Source: a virus. From it: a DNA stretch of 21,656 nucleotides. Under the pieces are notes generated by a model that was not told the DNA's origin, did no database searches, and saw only the letters and a list, made by a program, of their open reading frames with translations. Within the stretch, counting starts at the first letter, position 1. The number at the start of each line of letters is the position of its first letter. Position numbers and translations under genes: made by a program. This document shows positions 1,214 to 5,889 of the stretch, in pieces. Where the stretch lies: the UHGV virus genome UHGV-0374425; one strand, given 5' to 3'.

Positions 1214-2128
1214 TCAGTAGCGATGCAGTGAAGGCGGCAACTCTTTGTTCTTAAGCCTTTCCCATGCCAGAAGGTTCGTCGGCCCGTCAGGCTCATAAAT
1301 ATCTATATCCCGCGTGTGATTAATTAAAACGCCCCTCGCCCTCCCGATGGTATACGAGAACTCATAGCCGTAGTCGTGGCATATGCCGGAATAGCCAGAC
1401 TGAATCAGTTTTAATGCGGGATACAACTCACGGAACAATGCCTGTGAGCGGTTAGCATAATCCCATAGCCATACAAGGCTGTCTGTTTCTTTTGCGGAAA
1501 GCTCGTTGGTGCTCTTCTCTTGTTTGCCGATTAACTCTCCTTCAAGCGGAACGCGAGCAGCAAGTGACAGAGCTTCGGTAAACTGCTCCTCGCTGATTTC
1601 TTTGTACGAACATCCAAAATGTGATTTCAGTGACGACCACATGGTGATCATCGCCTTCGCCTGTTTTTCCTTTGGCAGAGACTGACCGCGACTCATGACG
1701 AGTTGTTTAATGGCTTCCTGCTGTTCAGTAGTGATTTTCCCCGGCAACGCCTTTTTAGCTTTCAGTGTATTTCCGTAAGACCCCGTTTTACGAATGGATG
1801 GCAAAACTTCAGCTGTCACCCATTTGCGGAATTTGTGCGGGACTGAACCTTTATTGACGGCATCGCGGCAACGCAGAACCAATGTATACATACCTGATTC
1901 GCTCACAATGCTTAAATTCTGCTCACCACCAAGGGTGTAACTTAAAGTTACTCCCTTTTCATCGTCATCAAGTGCAGTAAGCGCCTTGCGTGAGTTAGTC
2001 AGATTTAAAGCATCACAAACATCTTTTGCTACAAACCACGGCTCACCGCACTTGTTGATGACGCGGATTTCACTGTCGCCGAATTTGAAGATGGTGAAAT
2101 CGTTTTGTGCCTTTGCTATACTTTTCAT
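1214..2128 (-). CDS. ant: Antirepressor Ant (P22 Ant-like, BRO-N type N-terminal domain)
   Basis: 304 aa; N-terminal [16 protein letters not shown]...LDDDEKG...GGEQ...IVSESGMY...[15 protein letters not shown] closely parallels P22 Ant as recalled; AGGAAA RBS; follows the arc-like gene. Confidence 0.85.
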
Positions 2129-2200
2129 GTCAATATTTCCTAATCCGATTTGTTGATACCGAAGCCCTGACTGTTACAGCAGTTGGGGCTTCAACTTTTT
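2129..2200 (+). ncRNA. sar: Candidate sar-like antisense RNA covering the ant ribosome-binding site
   Basis: Plus-strand hairpin GAAGCCC(2161-2167)/GGGCTTC(2186-2192) followed by AACTTTTTAGG in the arc-ant intergenic region, antisense to the ant RBS; possible -10 TATACT at 2117-2122. Matches the position of P22 sar. Confidence 0.4.
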
Positions 2201-2331
2201 AGGCTGCGAATAAGACGCTGCACTATTTCTGAATTTAAAGACCTGCCCTCCTCCTTAGCCTTTTCCTTCAATTTTTCTTTAATCTCTGGCGGGATACGAA
2301 TCCCTAATGGAGCGATATCTCTAACTTTCAT
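2191..2331 (-). CDS. arc: Arc-like ribbon-helix-helix repressor (46 aa)
   Basis: MKVRDIAPLGIRIPPEIKEKLKEKAKEEGRSLNSEIVQRLIRSLKS: strand-helix-helix pattern with GRS.NSEI motif as in Arc/Mnt/CopG; directly upstream of ant. The 87 aa version in the ORF track would run across the operator region and the mnt start, so the internal ATG at 2331 is preferred. Confidence 0.7.
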   Translation of the reverse strand: MKVRDIAPLGIRIPPEIKEKLKEKAKEEGRSLNSEIVQRLIRSLKS

Positions 2332-2345
2332 TTCTTTCCCAATTG

Positions 2346-2430
2346 CTACACCGTGATAACTAAATACTACACCGTGCTTATTTAAAGTCAAAGTTTTTTT
2401 GCCTACACTGTGTAGCAATGCTACAGCGTG
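2346..2430. promoter_or_regulatory. Divergent promoter/operator region with four copies of a CTACAC(C/T/G)GTG motif, one extended to the palindrome CTACACTGTGTAG
   Basis: Motif at 2346-2355, 2367-2376, 2403-2412 (palindrome 2403-2415) and 2421-2430. Candidate -35 TTGACT / -10 TAGTAT on the minus strand for arc-ant; candidate TTTAAA / TACACT on the plus strand for mnt. Confidence 0.55.
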
Positions 2431-2441
2431 CAGGAGGAAAA

Positions 2442-2690
2442 ATGAAAGGTGCAAGAGATATCAGTCCCTTGGGAATTAGGATTCCAGACTATTTAAAGAA
2501 ACGCATTCAGCAGGAAGCGGATAAAAACGGCAGATCAATGAACTCAGAGATTGTGCTTATCCTTCAAAAACATGTTGATAATCTTGATGGCCCTCGCTCA
2601 CTTGAAGGATTCGCTAACCAAGAAGCTGACAAATTCAAAGAGGCGCTGCTTGAGACGCTAAAGACCATGTATGGTAAGGATGAAAAATAA
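2442..2690 (+). CDS. mnt: Mnt-like ribbon-helix-helix repressor (82 aa)
   Basis: MKGARDISPLGIRIPDYLKKRIQQEADKNGRSMNSEIVLILQ...: same length and RHH pattern as P22 Mnt, with C-terminal extension; strong RBS CAGGAGG at 2431-2437; the upstream ATG at 2418 lacks an RBS. Confidence 0.75.
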   Translation: MKGARDISPLGIRIPDYLKKRIQQEADKNGRSMNSEIVLILQKHVDNLDGPRSLEGFANQEADKFKEALLETLKTMYGKDEK

Positions 2691-3226
2691 TGCTGCACAC
2701 AATTCATTTCTTATGCCCCGTTAACACTGCCACTGTTGGGCAACTTCAGAACCACTGTCTCACCGCATTATCTCAAGGCGCAACTGAATTAAATATCCAT
2801 ATATCAAGTCAGGGAGGGGAAACTGCCGCTGGCTTTACTGCGTATAACTTTCTTAAGTCACTCCCTGTTACCGTTAGAACTCACAACATAAGCAATGTTG
2901 AATCCATAGCTAATATCGTTTTCCTGGCTGGCTCAGAACGTTTCGCAAACCCATTATCAAGATTCCTGTTACATCCTCTATTATGGGTCTTTGCCACCCC
3001 AGCCGCCGACCATGCCAGATTGAGAGAGTACGGGAAATGCCTCGATAACGATCTTGATCGCTTCGTTGAGACGTTCAATATCGACATCGGAACCCATATT
3101 AGGTGGGCATCCCTGATAGCAGACTCGACCATTTTGGATGCTAACAAGGCTCTTGAGCATGGCATAATTAATTCCATAAAAACTGCAAGGCTGGCATCCA
3201 ATCAGGCAAACTGGTGGGTTGTTTGA
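2690..3226 (+). CDS. ClpP-family (S14-like) serine peptidase homolog, translationally coupled to mnt
   Basis: 178 aa; NIHISSQGGETAAGFTAYNFLKSLPVTVRTHNISNVESIANIVFLAGSERFANPLSRFLLHP aligns by eye with ClpP [62 protein letters not shown]; candidate Ser, His and Asp at ClpP-equivalent positions; start ATG overlaps the mnt stop (TAATG). Confidence 0.6.
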   Translation: MLHTIHFLCPVNTATVGQLQNHCLTALSQGATELNIHISSQGGETAAGFTAYNFLKSLPVTVRTHNISNVESIANIVFLAGSERFANPLSRFLLHPLLWVFATPAADHARLREYGKCLDNDLDRFVETFNIDIGTHIRWASLIADSTILDANKALEHGIINSIKTARLASNQANWWVV

Positions 3227-3282: not shown

Positions 3283-3981
3283 TTACTGCGAAAGTTTATT
3301 AATGGAAAGGAAACCGCCAAAATTGCCGACATTCCTGCGCAGTTCACACCCGCGCATGCACTTGCTGCATCTGTCCTTACGGATATCCGTGGTGGGTTTA
3401 TCGAACTCATCCGCCACAGCCCCGCCCGTGTAACCACACTCATCAGAGCGGTAAGTCCACATACAGGTATTCGCCAGCATAATGCGACCGGGAAACAGCG
3501 CACCGTCCGTCTCCGTCGGTGTCGCCAGCACAAACGAGGCCGTCATGGCCGTCAGCGCTGATAACTGCTCCACCACCCACCGGTCCGTCAGCTCCTGCTC
3601 CGGGTCTGCCTCCGGATTCCCCGCCACAAAGTTCACCGCATCAAGAAAACGCGCATACACCCGGCGGCGGACCACCGTGGCACCCACCAGGCTCTGCAAA
3701 TCCTCCGCCATCCCGGTGACAAGGCCGAAAAGATTGGACACCGTCAGCGACGGGCGGGCACTGCTGCCCTTTCCGTTCATCTCAAAGCCGCTGCCCTCAA
3801 TCGGGTACGCCTGATATTCACGCCCCTGCCAGGTCACCGGCTCCCCTTTTTCATTCAGCTCATTACAGAAAAAATACCGCTCACCACCCTGCACCGTCAG
3901 GTCAATTTCCCAGAGTACCACCCGCGGTGACTGCTCTGATTTAACCGACTCATTCAGGCTTTCTTCGTTGATCTCCTGCAT
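3283..3981 (-). CDS. L: Minor tail protein L
   Basis: Translation ...VVLWEIDLT..GGERYFFCNE.NEKGEPVTWQGR.YQ.YPI.GSGFE.NGKG...GNFGGFLSINKLSQ parallels lambda gpL along its length; start placed at the ATG of MQEINEESL (3981), preceded by GGTGGA, rather than the upstream ATG of the track ORF. Confidence 0.9.
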   Translation of the reverse strand: MQEINEESLNESVKSEQSPRVVLWEIDLTVQGGERYFFCNELNEKGEPVTWQGREYQAYPIEGSGFEMNGKGSSARPSLTVSNLFGLVTGMAEDLQSLVGATVVRRRVYARFLDAVNFVAGNPEADPEQELTDRWVVEQLSALTAMTASFVLATPTETDGALFPGRIMLANTCMWTYRSDECGYTGGAVADEFDKPTTDIRKDRCSKCMRGCELRRNVGNFGGFLSINKLSQ

Positions 3982-3993
3982 AAACATCCACCC

Positions 3994-4020
3994 ATAAAAA
4001 AAGGGGCGCAATGCGCCCCT
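3994..4020 (-). terminator. Strong rho-independent terminator (GGGGCGCA/TGCGCCCC stem plus T7) ending the porin transcription unit, immediately upstream of the L start
   Basis: Minus strand reads AGGGGCGCATTGCGCCCCTTTTTTTATGGGTGGATGTTTATG. Confidence 0.7.
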
Positions 4021-4177
4021 GATAAAATAGTTCAATTAAAAAATCAAAAACGATGAAGGTAATAAAATGAAAATTAAATCAGCTAATAGCTGATCGCAGT
4101 GACCAGTGGAAATATAACTTCCACTGATACAGGCCATCTGTGAGGGCAGATGGCCTGTATTTATTTACCAGTAATCA

Positions 4178-5341
4178 TCAGAACTGATAAGTCATACCAA
4201 CAGCAACGATATCATCCGTTGCAATGCCCGCATCCCTGGTAAACTTATTCTCATCAACCAGATTGATTTTATAATCAACATAGGTGGACATATTTTTATT
4301 GAAGTAATATTTCGCACCTACGTCAACATACTTAACCAAATCCTGGTCACCATAGTTTTTACCACCTACAATGACATCCTGAGCACGAGACTGCAGGAAT
4401 GCCAGAGATGGACGCAGACCGAAATCAAACTGATACTGCAGTACCGCTTCAAAGTTTTGCGCTTTATCTGCAACTCCTTTATCACCAAAGGTCGTCAGAT
4501 TCTGAGTTTCGGAATATGTTGTAGCCAGGTAAAGGTTGTCAGCATCGTATTTTAGTCCGACTCCCCACATCTCAGCGTGTTTACCTTTTGCAACACTACC
4601 GGAATCAACAACGATCTGCTTTTCAGTCACTTTACCGGTTAAAGGATCAGTTTGTTCAATCGTCAGAGTACCATTCAGACCTTTTTCCTGATTATTGGTT
4701 CGGTCCGCATTAATATATGCGGCAACGATACCAAAACCTTCATATTCATAACTGGCTGAGAAACCGTGACCATCACCATTAGCTTCCCGGAGATCACCCC
4801 GATCATTTTTACCCTGGTACTGTGCCGCAAAATTCAGGCCATCGACAAGCCCAAAGAAATCTGTATTACGATAGGTTAATACCCCGGAAGTACGGGCTGT
4901 CATGAAGTTATCGGTCTGGGTCCAGCCATCACCGCCAAACTCTGGTAATACGTCAGTATAAGAACCAACATCGTACGCAATACCATAGTTACGACCATAA
5001 TCAATGGTGCCAAACTCACCAAACTTCAGACCTGCAAATGCAAGACGGGTTTTATTACCCGCAGCACCCTCTGATTCAGCTTTATTACCAGAGAACTGAT
5101 ATTCCCACTGACCAAAACCAGTCAACTGGTCATTAATCTGAGTTTCACCTTTAAAGCCCAGACGTGCGTATGTCTTATCTCCATCATCCCCCTTATCACT
5201 GGAGAAATAATGGAGTGCAGTTGCACGCCCATACACATCAAGTTTATTGCCATCTTTATTGTATACTTCTGCAGCCTGCGCCCCCGCTGCAAAAATTACA
5301 GCTGCTGCCACAGCTGAAAGTGCCACTGTCATTTTTTTCAT
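4178..5341 (-). CDS. OmpC/OmpF/NmpC-family general porin (prophage moron) with signal peptide
   Basis: 387 aa; signal peptide ending [51 protein letters not shown] and C-terminal ...YVDYKINL...GMTYQF match E. coli OmpC as recalled; AT-rich upstream region; hairpins downstream. Confidence 0.9.
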
Positions 5342-5439
5342 GATTTAATCCTTATTTAAACTGAACTATTCATGCATAGAGATGTCATGAACAAAACTCA
5401 AAATATTGTAAATTAAATTACGGGTTCAATTTTTATTTT

Positions 5440-5454
5440 GTTTCAAAATGTAAA
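5440..5454 (-). promoter_or_regulatory. OmpR-box-like sequence TTTACATTTTGAAAC in the porin upstream region
   Basis: Minus-strand TTTACATTTTGAAAC matches the core of E. coli ompC OmpR sites as recalled; lies about 100 nt upstream of the porin ATG in an AT-rich region (5342-5547). Confidence 0.45.
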
Positions 5455-5547
5455 AAAACAACTTTGATAGCACTTTATGTCAAGACAAAACAAAAATAAC
5501 AAGCAAGCAAATTAATAAACGATGCTTTTAGGTTTTTTCTCAAAAAC

Positions 5548-5889
5548 TTATCTTATTACCTGTTCCATCATACAACTGAAATCGCTGTACCTGGCGTTAT
5601 CCGTAATACTCCACTCCCGGCACACCACCCTGACCGTCCGGTTATGTTTCGGGGGTTTCCACAAAAAGGCACGGTAACCACCATGCCACGATAAAAATTC
5701 ATCCAGCCAGCGCCGGGTCGCCTCATCCGTCACCCGGAACACTGCCTGAAATGTCTTCAGTCGGGCATTCAGTCCCGTCGGTCGGCGCTGTTCATAACCG
5801 TCACCAAACCGGACCCTCACCACCGACGGTTTCTCACTCACCTGCATCCCTTCACGCGGGACCAGATGCAGCGTTTTTATCTCAGCCAC
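5548..5889 (-). CDS. M: Minor tail protein M
   Basis: 113 aa; VRFGDGYEQR...GLNA.LKT...FLWKPP pattern matches lambda gpM; GTG start overlaps the end of H. Confidence 0.8.
   Translation of the reverse strand: MAEIKTLHLVPREGMQVSEKPSVVRVRFGDGYEQRRPTGLNARLKTFQAVFRVTDEATRRWLDEFLSWHGGYRAFLWKPPKHNRTVRVVCREWSITDNARYSDFSCMMEQVIR

Follow-up and report, generated by a model that had tools for sequence, protein, structure and literature searches.

The closest described relatives of the locus reported here are two porin units of lambdoid phages, nmpC-ipeX of DLP12 and lc-ipeX of PA-2. In each, a phage general porin gene with its own promoter is followed by a long structured 3' untranslated region (3'UTR) that ends in a GC-rich terminator, and the unit lies in the Q-S interval on the strand opposite to the late genes. 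Castillo-Keller reportedly found in 2006 that ipeX reduces the levels of OmpC and OmpF and that a porin swap takes place in PA-2 lysogens. The porin swap in PA-2 lysogens is also described in reviews, according to which IpeX is made from the porin transcript and lowers OmpC and OmpF, though with no base pairing to either ompC or ompF. The "OmpD/NmpC" porins of many lambdoid phages are of the same known kind, and LF82 lysogens express one of them, the porin in the Q-S interval of prophage Perceval, 10-fold above background (PMC9928086). Plasmid-prophages of the P1/P7 family, a different phage family, carry an nmpC gene between other neighbors (odaA and ssb), again with a 3'UTR of this kind after the porin. 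Classical lambdoid morons (lom, bor, and those of HK97/HK022) are likewise promoter-gene-terminator units of deviant GC content placed between adjacent genes, but with a cargo other than a porin plus a regulatory RNA.

Here we analyzed a window of 21,656 nucleotides of viral DNA (UHGV virus genome UHGV-0374425), a prophage of Escherichia coli, in which a porin gene stands between the tail genes M and L. We interpret it as part of a lysogenic-conversion (moron) cassette of the nmpC/lc-ipeX kind that occupies a new site, M/L, and has a different 5' control region, a reading to which we give a probability of about 0.6. Phage porin cassettes with an ipeX-type element are already known from nmpC and lc; what is new here is the M/L position and the 5' control region.

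The insert and its porin gene

An insert of 1,576 bp at positions 3982 to 5557, on the minus strand, separates the lambdoid tail genes M (gpM minor tail protein, 5548 to 5889, minus strand; PF05939, E = 5.1e-28) and L (gpL minor tail protein, 3283 to 3981, minus strand; PF05100, E = 1.5e-92, and so annotated in an identical record). Lambda was dropped as the reference for the empty site because its M is too diverged and L alone aligned, so E. coli prophages with contiguous M and L were used instead. Against these, homology stops at 5558 and picks up again at 3981. The junction comparison also shows that the insert provides the final three codons and stop of gpM (5548 to 5557) and a new Shine-Dalgarno-like GGGTGGA (3987 to 3993) for gpL. 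The insert has a GC content of 40%, compared with 54% for the window, and is carried by about 90 of 5,426 complete E. coli genomes, while at least 1,198 complete E. coli genomes have an uninterrupted M-L with a TGATG stop/start overlap. The cassette lies on the same strand as gpM, gpL, and the late genes. In the identical RefSeq record, a frameshift is annotated in the portal gene, and this prophage copy may be defective.

The sequence-only reading had proposed a porin moron within the tail operon, and all the elements it described were found at or near the positions it gave. The flanking genes are adjacent in most related phages, the base composition is foreign, and the comparisons establish, at the level of sequence, that a foreign segment of 1.6 kb is inserted here, that its porin gene is intact and subject to purifying selection, and that it has both a promoter-like region that is conserved and a strong terminator of its own. 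That the location is unusual was borne out as well: in all phage records with a porin (42 of 42), the gene lies in the Q-S interval or in P1/P7, and its product is at most 69% identical to the window porin. In the literature searched, we found no description of a phage porin inside a tail operon or of the M/L junction as a moron site.

The porin coding sequence (4178 to 5341, minus strand; 387 amino acids) matches PF00267 over profile positions 1 to 337 of 337 (E = 2.9e-139). Residues 1 to 23 (5273 to 5341) form the signal peptide, as solved mature OmpC chains align from residue 24 through the C-terminal YQF with about 64% identity; the full-length general porin with a signal peptide that had been read from the letters is therefore upheld. 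The open reading frame is intact, with the loop-3 PEFGG motif and a C-terminal Phe, and from the roughly 64% identity to solved OmpC a trimer of 16-strand beta-barrels is the inferred fold. Compared with five diverged M-L cassettes, dN/dS is 0.03 to 0.08, which indicates strong purifying selection, with dS between M-L cassettes at 0.5 to 2.9, that is, with saturated synonymous sites. The main indel region of the clade is a long variable loop at about residues 218 to 250 (4592 to 4690, minus strand), the sole gapped segment in the M-L clade alignment, with about 30 residues that have no counterpart in solved OmpC chains. An AlphaFold2 model was set aside for loop mapping because it was poor (mean pLDDT, 59.5).

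The porin had been called OmpC-family, which holds in the broad sense only. It passes the NCBIfam "porin OmpC" model marginally (496.6 bits against a cutoff of 484), and that model is of the subfamily type, not an equivalog. Orthology to OmpC does not stand: identity is 63.6% to K-12 OmpC and 70 to 76% to OmpD/NmpC/Lc porins, the gene resides in a prophage and not at the ompC-micF locus, and a neighbor-joining tree places the protein in a separate M-L clade, closer to OmpD/NmpC/Lc and outside the OmpC/OmpN branch. By identity and tree position, it is a general porin of the OmpD/NmpC/Lc lineage and not an OmpC orthologue. It is nonetheless only 68 to 73% identical to the nmpC/lc porins and 64 to 71% identical to P1/P7 NmpC. 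All relatives with at least 78% identity are in the M-L position, in prophages with differing tape-measure and M types and also in Citrobacter, while relatives with at most 73% identity are in the Q-S position. The nearest chromosomal proteins are an OmpD-context porin of Citrobacter amalonaticus (76%) and Salmonella OmpD (71%). The ompD genes of Salmonella and Citrobacter have a similar Shine-Dalgarno region (AUAAGGAUUA) but their 3'UTR is short, has a plain terminator, and lacks an IpeX-like element. They have no OmpR tandem site either, and they sit, unlike the window gene, in the fixed chromosomal context EamA-ompD-GFA-MFS.

Two other distinct porins were considered as counterparts. Enteroaggregative strain EAEC 042 has a "phylogenetically distinct porin," Ec042-2121 (PMC2808357); this gene was not located, and the lambdoid prophage of EAEC 042 at 2.22 to 2.27 Mb has a contiguous M-L. 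The porin P0104 adjoins a sulfatase gene and is not in a tail operon.

The 5' control region

The insert was said to have an AT-rich upstream region of its own, and the spacer indeed has a GC content of 24.8%. It contains the motif TTTACATTTTGAAAC at 5440 to 5454 on the minus strand, for which the chance expectation is 0.02 per window at up to two mismatches. The motif had been taken for the core of OmpR sites at ompC, correctly: the box matches the C1 region upstream of K-12 ompC at 16 of 16 positions. It is part of an OmpR-type tandem site, TTTACATTTT GAAACAAAAT (5435 to 5454, minus strand), that is kept in all 35 M-L loci, commonly reading TTTACATTTTGTTACAT. This common form agrees with the published OmpR repeat GTTACATTTTGTTACAT (PMC5438342) at 16 of 17 positions; across the M-L relatives, the boxes have one to four mismatches to the consensus, and most variants are nearer to it than C1 is. 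Among 17 porin upstream regions, the tandem site was found only at M-L cassettes, ompC, and ompF. It was not found, with up to four mismatches, upstream of lc, nmpC, or P7 nmpC, and it is absent from the ompD, phoE, and ompN upstream regions scanned. The cassette has a single site, compared with three each at ompC and ompF.

Five nucleotides downstream of the OmpR-type site is a predicted -35 hexamer, TTGAAC (5424 to 5429, minus strand). TTGAAY occurs in 17 of 18 distinct upstream regions, and the 5-nt gap is invariant. K-12 presumably has the same geometry, with C3 5 nt from TTGGAT at ompC and F3 5 nt from TAGCGA at ompF. The predicted -10 region (TATTTT) lies within AATATTTT (5400 to 5407, minus strand), which is invariant in the upstream-region alignment; the -35 to -10 spacing is 16 nt, but 14 nt in three loci. 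We infer this -10 assignment, because a consensus promoter scan did not call it, the match reaching only 8 of 12. Transcription is predicted to start near 5393, which gives a predicted 5'UTR (5342 to 5392, minus strand) with the conserved blocks TGACA, TGAATAGTTCA, and an AAGGA Shine-Dalgarno sequence. The same blocks are seen upstream of lc, nmpC, and P7 nmpC.

Farther upstream is a marbox-like element, ATAGCACTTTATGTCAAGACA (5467 to 5487, plus strand), homologous to the Rob/MarA/SoxS site before K-12 micF. Positions 5463 to 5491 match K-12 at 25 of 29 positions, collinear with the C1 match, and the matching K-12 sequence is the micF DNA that was cocrystallized with Rob (PMC8279559). The element is held 14 to 15 nt from the OmpR box in the 18 distinct upstream regions. 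The window thus has, in the same order and orientation as K-12 ompC-micF, an ompC/ompF-type OmpR site and a micF-type marbox, both of which lc and nmpC lack. The two loci also share the logic of coupling a porin gene to an anti-ompF RNA. The window differs from ompC-micF in that about 100 bp between the two blocks are missing, as are C2 and C3, and there is no divergent micF gene; a MicF-like module is found instead in the 3'UTR, on the same strand. At the M junction, AACTTATCTTATT|ACC looks like micF AACTTTATTTATTACC and lies at the distance that collinearity predicts, which made it a candidate 5' remnant of micF. It is unproven, as the ACC is part of the conserved gpM coding sequence and the spacer is not conserved among cassettes.

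A scan of the cassette for CRP and PhoB boxes found none, but it also missed the annotated CRP sites of PA-2 lc and so has no power. OmpR wiring of a prophage porin would not in itself be new, since nmpC is already a member of the OmpR regulon; because nmpC is listed there as OmpR repressed (PMC5438342), any OmpR effect on the cassette may be of either sign. A near-consensus tandem site fixed 5 nt before a conserved -35, like C3 and F3, makes OmpR control plausible, and on balance we would expect the cassette to be OmpR responsive.

The structured 3'UTR and its MicF-like seed

The porin gene was said to have its own terminators. A strong intrinsic terminator is indeed present, AGGGGCGCAUUGCGCCCCU followed by U7 (3995 to 4020, minus strand; hairpin, 4020 to 4002), with a stem that is invariant in the 3'UTR alignments; the cassette transcript would end 14 nt before the gpL ATG. 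Terminator-like sites in the region number 6, compared with 1.1 expected. The term, however, undersells what lies downstream of the gene, an IpeX-family structured RNA with a MicF-like seed. This 3'UTR of 183 nt (3995 to 4177, minus strand) spans from the porin stop (4178 to 4180) to the Rho-independent terminator (4020 to 3995), as IpeX does. Its minimum free energy is -67.1 kcal/mol (z = -8.5). RNAalifold shows 12 covarying pairs (6 sequences), 32 of the 48 model pairs have double changes, and 94.5% of the alignment cells are paired, compared with 39 to 46% in slid controls. The predicted structure has three hairpins, all on the minus strand: hairpin 1 (4127 to 4160) with compensatory changes in 12 of 14 pairs, hairpin 2 (4104 to 4126) with such changes in 9 of 10 pairs, and hairpin 3 (4077 to 4095), followed by a U-rich run, which is supported by the terminator scan, RNAalifold, and covariation. 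A long-range GGUAA/UUACC helix inside the 3'UTR was rejected, having weak support and an A-C mismatch at one pair in 10 of 18 sequences.

We built a covariance model, R1, solely from the 3'UTRs of M-L cassettes. It matches the ipeX region of DLP12 and PA-2 over the full length (31.7 bits, E = 0.0024), with the match beginning at the stop codon, and its best nonself match is P7 (47.7 bits, E = 3e-6); these E-values are approximate, and similarity to the DLP12 and PA-2 elements at the sequence level is low. Every porin 3' end of the Q-S type is matched, directly 3' of the phage porin. A search of 209 kb gave nothing beyond the DLP12, PA-2, and P7 regions, and none of the chromosomal porins searched was matched. 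The R1 matches establish homology of the 3'UTR to IpeX in sequence and predicted fold, and we regard a functional porin moron with an IpeX-family 3'UTR as very probable.

Between hairpin 3 and the terminator lies a MicF-like single-stranded seed, UUUUCAUUUUAUUACCUUCAUC (4052 to 4073, minus strand), with a core, UUAUUACCUU (4056 to 4065), that does not vary in the 3'UTR alignment, whereas the stems on either side show compensatory changes. The predicted fold of the 85-nt 3' fragment leaves the seed unpaired and includes the terminator; in the fold of the full 3'UTR, the seed is partly paired with GGUAA just past the stop codon. The layout is of the MicF type, with a 5' seed complementary to the ompF Shine-Dalgarno sequence and AUG and then a terminator hairpin. 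The Rfam MicF model (RF00033) aligns weakly, but over its full length, to 3994 to 4084 with 28.3 bits (E = 0.16), below its gathering score of 79, so the 3'UTR is not a member of the MicF family; K-12 micF scores 114 bits. The 3'UTR may nevertheless work like MicF.

Against a background of 165 start regions, the best duplex of the seed is with the K-12 ompF start region (-17 to +9; -18.9 kcal/mol), although AU-rich seeds readily give favorable energies. The duplex with ompC has -15.9 kcal/mol and that with its own mRNA -7.5 kcal/mol, while MicF itself pairs with ompF at -27.4 kcal/mol. A UAUUACC core is common to the DLP12, PA-2, and P7 elements, so that nmpC/lc-ipeX share with the window both this single-stranded core and the proximal 5'UTR blocks; the seed is longer and more MicF-like in the window than in nmpC/lc-ipeX. 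The seed of P7, UUAUUUAUUACC, matches 12 nt of MicF exactly, and its duplex with ompF has -20.5 kcal/mol. Each of the four seeds compared has ompF as its best target among the 165 start regions and spares the start region of its own gene. We put direct base-pairing repression of ompF by the 3'UTR seed at even odds. Elsewhere in the 3'UTR, the motif GUCACUGC shows perfect pairing with P7 and lc-type 5'UTRs, but not with the 5'UTR of the M-L cassettes themselves.

Proposed function and alternatives

In a lysogen, the late operon would be silent and the cassette transcribed from its own weak promoter, controlled by OmpR bound between about -61 and -42, where the near-consensus tandem site lies; activation would be likelier than repression, and the marbox-like site farther upstream may add input. 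The protein made from the mRNA would be a general porin from the OmpD/NmpC/Lc lineage, its surface bearing a long variable loop. Its 3'UTR would act in the manner of IpeX and MicF, either while still in the mRNA or as a cleaved-off RNA of about 85 nt, with the UUAUUACCUU seed pairing with the Shine-Dalgarno sequence and AUG of host ompF, less well with ompC, and not with its own start region. Since the seed would pair with ompF and ompC but spare its own gene, we propose that the phage porin would replace the host porins. The likely benefit would be the loss of OmpF and OmpC as receptors for other phages and colicins while diffusion is maintained. The terminator would insulate gpL in the lysogen, and Q-modified late transcription should read through it in the lytic state.

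The moron could be real and its OmpR-like box still not an OmpR site in vivo. The box might be a piece inherited from an intergenic region of the ompC-micF type, an AT-rich element that is UP-like or bound by H-NS, or the site of another regulator, with expression being constitutive or set by H-NS, CRP, or pH. A spacer of 25% GC is a typical H-NS target, there is one site only and an uncertain core promoter, CRP sites are annotated for the related lc gene, and the collinear marbox block shows that the upstream region was inherited as a unit. Yet the box and its fixed geometry have persisted in cassettes whose dS exceeds 1, most variants lie nearer the OmpR consensus than C1 does, and other phage porins and ompD lack such a site, so we find this alternative doubtful. 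Unlikely, and somewhat more so, is that OmpR represses the cassette, with the phage porin appearing at low OmpR~P. The precedent would be nmpC, listed as OmpR repressed (PMC5438342), but the cassette site lies upstream of the predicted -35, clear of the core promoter, and at the 5-nt distance seen for the activating C3 and F3. Neither nmpC nor lc is a close model here, because their upstream regions lack an OmpR-type site at up to four mismatches. About as doubtful as a non-OmpR box is a 3'UTR that merely stabilizes or terminates the porin mRNA, with no effect in trans and a coincidental seed. The MicF model score is below threshold, AU-rich sequences pair promiscuously, and reviews say that IpeX does not base pair with targets. 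Such a role in cis would leave several observations aside: a single-stranded 10-mer without variation between stems that have compensatory changes, a UAUUACC core that recurs in the DLP12, PA-2, and P7 elements, ompF as the best of 165 start regions for all four seeds with their own starts spared, and the reported lowering of OmpC and OmpF by the homologous ipeX region.

We consider it quite improbable that the cassette matters mainly in lytic growth, where it would strip OmpF and OmpC receptors from the dying cell and its debris and spare progeny futile adsorption. Its orientation would allow high-level expression after induction, as it is on the same strand as the late operon and the tail genes, unlike the opposite-strand Q-S porins, and Q antitermination lets late lambdoid transcription pass terminators. 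However, a conserved promoter region, regulator sites, and a terminator would then be unneeded, and porin turnover is slow relative to the lytic cycle. The gpJ tip is identical to that of PhiR5_1 and long-tailed Stx2a phages, a tip type for which no receptor assignment was found in the literature searched. Decaying, nonfunctional cargo in a defective prophage is already disfavored and very hard to credit: the frameshift annotated in the portal gene would fit, but the open reading frame is intact with its signal peptide, PEFGG motif, and C-terminal Phe, dN/dS is 0.03 to 0.08 over deep divergence, and the noncoding elements are conserved.

Returning to the lysogenic-conversion cassette, a wider and tentative generalization, which we hold to be somewhat less probable than not, is that all phage porin cassettes (M-L, Q-S nmpC/lc, and P1/P7) carry a MicF mimic in the 3'UTR. 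IpeX would then be a base-pairing small RNA, its conserved UAUUACC seed binding the ribosome-binding site of ompF and, imperfectly, that of ompC. The M-L cassette would be the most complete, portable porin replacement module, joining promoter control of the host type, by OmpR and possibly by MarA/SoxS/Rob, to a surface-variable porin and an RNA against host porins. The prophage would take over the osmotic and stress logic by which the cell sets outer-membrane permeability and receptor display. The conserved MicF-like seed offers a directly testable base-pairing model for IpeX, which has been held since 2006 to have "no complementarity." Porins set the entry of antibiotics and nutrients, are receptors for many phages and colicins, and are major antigens. 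If the proposal is true, host OmpF and OmpC would be swapped for a phage porin with a variable loop under the host OmpR circuit, and drug permeability, phage susceptibility, and serology would be changed in the carriers, about 1.6% of sequenced E. coli, with STEC and clinical isolates among them. The PGAP label of the gene is plainly "porin OmpC," so that resistance or typing studies can confuse it with the chromosomal gene.

A porin cassette between tail genes M and L

The window represents a lambdoid Escherichia coli prophage. Strains CP55_Sichuan, LZSFT34, SCU-106, and JNEC-KY177 carry chromosomal sequence 100% identical to its M-porin-L stretch; in CP55_Sichuan, the prophage adjoins yecD/aspS, with the gene order terminase, capsid, tail, J, tail fibre along the minus strand of the window. 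Profile matches identified the ORFs flanking the porin gene as gpM (PF05939) and gpL (PF05100), in agreement with the sequence-only reading, which had placed the gene inside the tail operon between M and L. Homology to an empty site stops at 5558 and restarts at 3981, the L start codon; the insert is therefore 3982-5557. It provides the last three M codons and a new Shine-Dalgarno sequence for L, which at empty sites is translationally coupled to M via TGATG. The GC content is 40% in the insert and 25% in the upstream spacer versus 54% in the window, so the gene does have its own AT-rich upstream region, and it has its own terminator as well, a strong one at 4020-4002 followed by U7, which ends 14 nt ahead of the gpL ATG.

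The porin ORF (4178-5341, minus strand, 387 amino acids) has a complete Porin_1 domain (E 2.9e-139). In alignments to solved OmpC structures, the mature chains begin at residue 24 and extend to the C-terminal YQF, which makes residues 1 to 23 the signal peptide and bears out the description of a full-length general porin with one. The solved OmpC chains lack an equivalent of some 30 residues (roughly 220-250). The protein barely passed the NCBI "porin OmpC" subfamily model (496.6 versus 484 bits) and failed both the PhoE and OmpF equivalog models. Its identity to the K-12 porins is 63.6% (OmpC), 61.7% (OmpF), 61.5% (OmpN), and 60.9% (PhoE).

The closest tblastn matches in 50,697 phage records have 64 to 69% identity, and all of these best matches are either Lc/NmpC/"OmpD" genes, which occupy the opposite strand between Q and the lysis genes, or P1/P7-type nmpC. 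No porin at the M-L site was found among these sequenced phage isolates or described in the literature searched, which upholds the earlier view that the location is unusual. Relatives with 78 to 93% identity were found in a large protein database, in E. coli and Citrobacter farmeri. All those that could be located occupy the M-L interval, in the orientation of the tail genes, in prophages that differ in tape-measure and M types; about 30 further M-L loci came from IMG/VR. Two located relatives with 62 to 68% identity, P0022 and P0020, sit between Q and S. In a neighbour-joining tree, the M-L porins form their own clade, nearer to OmpD/NmpC/Lc and to porins in the Citrobacter OmpD context (70 to 76%) than to K-12 OmpC, OmpF, PhoE, or OmpN. 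The name "OmpC family" thus stands as a family label but not as a statement of orthology.

We joined the 3' end of M to the 5' end of L as a query against complete E. coli genomes. M and L are contiguous in at least 1,198 of them, and about 90 of the 5,426 genomes carry the porin. Between cassettes, dN/dS is 0.03 to 0.08 with dS of 0.5 to 2.9, which indicates ancient divergence under strong purifying selection, and most variation lies in the long loop (residues 218-250). In one relative, L020, the sequence ahead of the M-L cassette (2640-2800) contains, in order, a junction of M stop and L start, about 80 nt from the gpL 5' end, and a second gpM 3' end. This duplication appears to be a recombination scar, and the cassette appears to have spread among lambdoid prophages via the flanking M/L homology.

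Two other groups of porins were noticed. A porin that is annotated "OmpC" and has about 72 to 74% DNA identity to the window gene is encoded on about 99 P1/P7-like plasmids among the complete E. coli genomes. A further distinct porin, P0104 (378 amino acids, 63% identity), has a sulfatase gene and a transposase as neighbours (locus L031) and may correspond to Ec042-2121, the "phylogenetically distinct porin" of EAEC 042 (PMC2808357).

The upstream control region

Since synonymous sites are saturated between cassettes, conserved noncoding blocks are meaningful. We compared the upstream regions of six diverged cassettes and those of 35 loci, which comprise 18 distinct sequences. They share a block with the plus-strand reading nnnGCACTTTnTnnnAAGA; a 20-mer, TTTACATTTTG(T/A)(T/A)(A/G)CAnnnn, 14 to 15 nt past it; TTGAA(C/T) exactly 5 nt past the 20-mer; and an invariant AATATTTT 14 to 16 nt further on. 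The motif TTTACATTTTGAAAC at 5440-5454 (minus strand; chance expectation, 0.02 per window), which the sequence-only reading had taken for the core of the ompC OmpR sites, indeed matches the C1 region of K-12 ompC at 16/16 positions. With TTGAAC as the predicted -35 and TATTTT as the predicted -10, transcription would start near 5393, and the OmpR-type site would lie at about -61 to -42. A consensus promoter scan did not call this weak promoter, and three loci have a hexamer spacing that deviates by 2 nt. The same 5 nt that separate the cassette site from its -35 separate C3 from TTGGAT in K-12 ompC and F3 from TAGCGA in K-12 ompF, in the registers we assume for C3 and F3.

In most relatives, the 20-mer reads TTTACATTTTGTTACAT, which matches the OmpR repeat GTTACATTTTGTTACAT, derived from ChIP-exo and earlier work (PMC5438342), at 16/17 positions. 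A scan of porin upstream regions with the consensus from that study, allowing up to 4 mismatches, was positive for all M-L cassettes and for K-12 ompC and ompF; it found no site ahead of lc, nmpC, P7 nmpC, a Q-S phage porin gene, Citrobacter or Salmonella ompD, phoE, or ompN. The phage porin nmpC is a member of the OmpR regulon, listed as repressed (PMC5438342). For the cassette, activation by OmpR seems more likely than repression because of the site geometry. The first block matches the Rob/MarA/SoxS box ahead of K-12 micF, as quoted for the micF-Rob crystal DNA (PMC8279559), at 25/29 positions and is collinear with the C1 match. An ompC-micF type intergenic region is thus the apparent source of the 5' control region, after loss of micF and of about 100 bp.

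A structured 3' untranslated region

The 183 nt from the stop codon to the terminator fold far better than shuffled sequences (-67.1 kcal/mol, z -8.5), a structure that the sequence-only reading did not see. Three hairpins and the terminator make up the paired part of the predicted fold, and a long AU-rich stretch is left single stranded; RNAalifold found 12 covarying pairs in the six cassettes. The same layout is visible after DLP12 nmpC, PA-2 lc, and P7 nmpC; this is the region that genetic work defined as ipeX. A covariance model trained on the M-L cassettes alone gave one full-length match per phage porin gene searched, beginning at the stop codon: 47.7 bits for P7 nmpC (E 3e-6), 31.7 bits for DLP12 nmpC and PA-2 lc (E 0.0024), and 29 to 38 bits for Q-S type porins (E 0.00018-0.0076). 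Chromosomal ompC, ompF, phoE, ompN, and ompD gave no match. The model-based alignment covers 19 distinct sequences; paired cells make up 94.5% of it versus 39 to 46% in slid controls, with double changes in 32 of 48 pairs, counts that lean towards structure because the alignment was fitted to the model. We thus recognise the 3'UTR, from sequence and predicted structure, as a member of the IpeX family. Reviews describe IpeX RNA as a product of the porin transcript that reduces OmpC and OmpF.

The Rfam MicF model aligns full length to 3994-4084 (minus strand) with 28.3 bits versus a threshold of 79 and 114 bits for K-12 micF, which places the element outside the MicF family. A single-stranded 10-mer, UUAUUACCUU (4065-4056), is invariant across all M-L cassettes and resembles UUUAUUACCGUC of MicF; P7 carries UUAUUUAUUACC, 12 nt identical to MicF, and DLP12 IpeX carries AUAUUACCCUU. 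Among 165 background start regions, ompF included, ompF was the best predicted target of the three seeds and of MicF. The window seed pairs from -17 to +9 of ompF at -18.9 kcal/mol, with -15.9 for ompC and -7.5 for the window porin start. In the same order, the values were -15.8, -15.5, and -7.4 for DLP12 IpeX, -20.5, -16.3, and -9.9 for P7, and -27.4, -14.1, and -12.4 for the MicF control. In an 85-nt 3' fragment, the predicted fold leaves the seed unpaired and forms the terminator alone, an architecture typical of Hfq-dependent sRNAs. The original IpeX work reportedly looked at ompC, and the ompF effect is said to have needed Hfq. In reviews, IpeX acts without complementarity or base pairing to its targets; pairing to the ompF ribosome-binding site, as modeled here, would be a testable alternative.

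A UAUUACC core is also present in known IpeX and its P7 counterpart (DLP12, L003 3363-3537; PA-2, L004 2582-2756; P7, L006 3648-3801), and for DLP12 ipeX and P7, the best target predicted among the 165 regions is the ompF Shine-Dalgarno/AUG. In each of the six diverged cassettes, an invariant GUCACUGC (4096-4103, minus strand) lies single stranded between hairpins 2 and 3; its complement, GCAGUGAC, is found in the 5'UTRs of the lc, nmpC, and P7 porin mRNAs and only partly in that of the M-L cassettes. The P7 nmpC 3'UTR (L006 3612-3798) gave a weak full-length match to the Rfam GcvB model (30.5 bits versus a threshold of 42, E 0.0032), probably due to its U-rich, terminator-rich composition.

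Proposed role and other features of the window

In a lysogen, the cassette would be transcribed from its own OmpR-controlled promoter; the transcript would yield the phage porin, and its 3'UTR would lower host OmpF and OmpC, so that the porins of the cell are swapped. The terminator would shield gpL from read-through, and Q-antiterminated late transcription would pass it. The swap would probably serve to exclude phages and colicins that depend on porins and to alter permeability and antigenicity, which is how Lc in PA-2 lysogens has classically been explained. Among analogous Q-S porins, which are expressed from prophages, NmpC of Perceval was 10-fold above background in LF82 (PMC9928086). Phage porins, the OmpR link of nmpC, and IpeX were already known, and PGAP annotates the window gene as "porin OmpC." What appears to be new is the separate M-L clade with its fixed tail-operon site, the predicted combination of an ompC/ompF-type OmpR site with a micF-type marbox, and the recognition of the 3'UTR as IpeX family, with its conserved MicF-like seed.

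A terminator-like hairpin, GGCATGGTGGTTACCGTGCC then TTTTTGTGG, inside the gpM coding sequence (5668-5687, minus strand) is probably due to chance or coding constrained. The identical RefSeq record annotates the portal gene (12107-14529; L001 28825-31247) as a pseudogene with a frameshift, and in the window the gene is split into ORFs 12107-13168 and 13165-14163; this could reflect either a defective copy of the prophage or an error in sequencing. A second tail-operon insertion (1214-3226), resembling the P22 immI region, lies between gpL (3283-3981) and gpK (422-1159), where lambda has a gap of only about 150 nt. It contains a Bro-N/P22AR_C antirepressor-like ORF (1214-2128) and a YlcI/YnfO ORF (2191-2331) on the minus strand, divergent Arc-family (2442-2690) and ClpP-like (2690-3226) ORFs on the plus strand, and a plus-strand sar antisense RNA (2130-2196; RF00262, 69.4 bits) overlapping the antirepressor 5' end.
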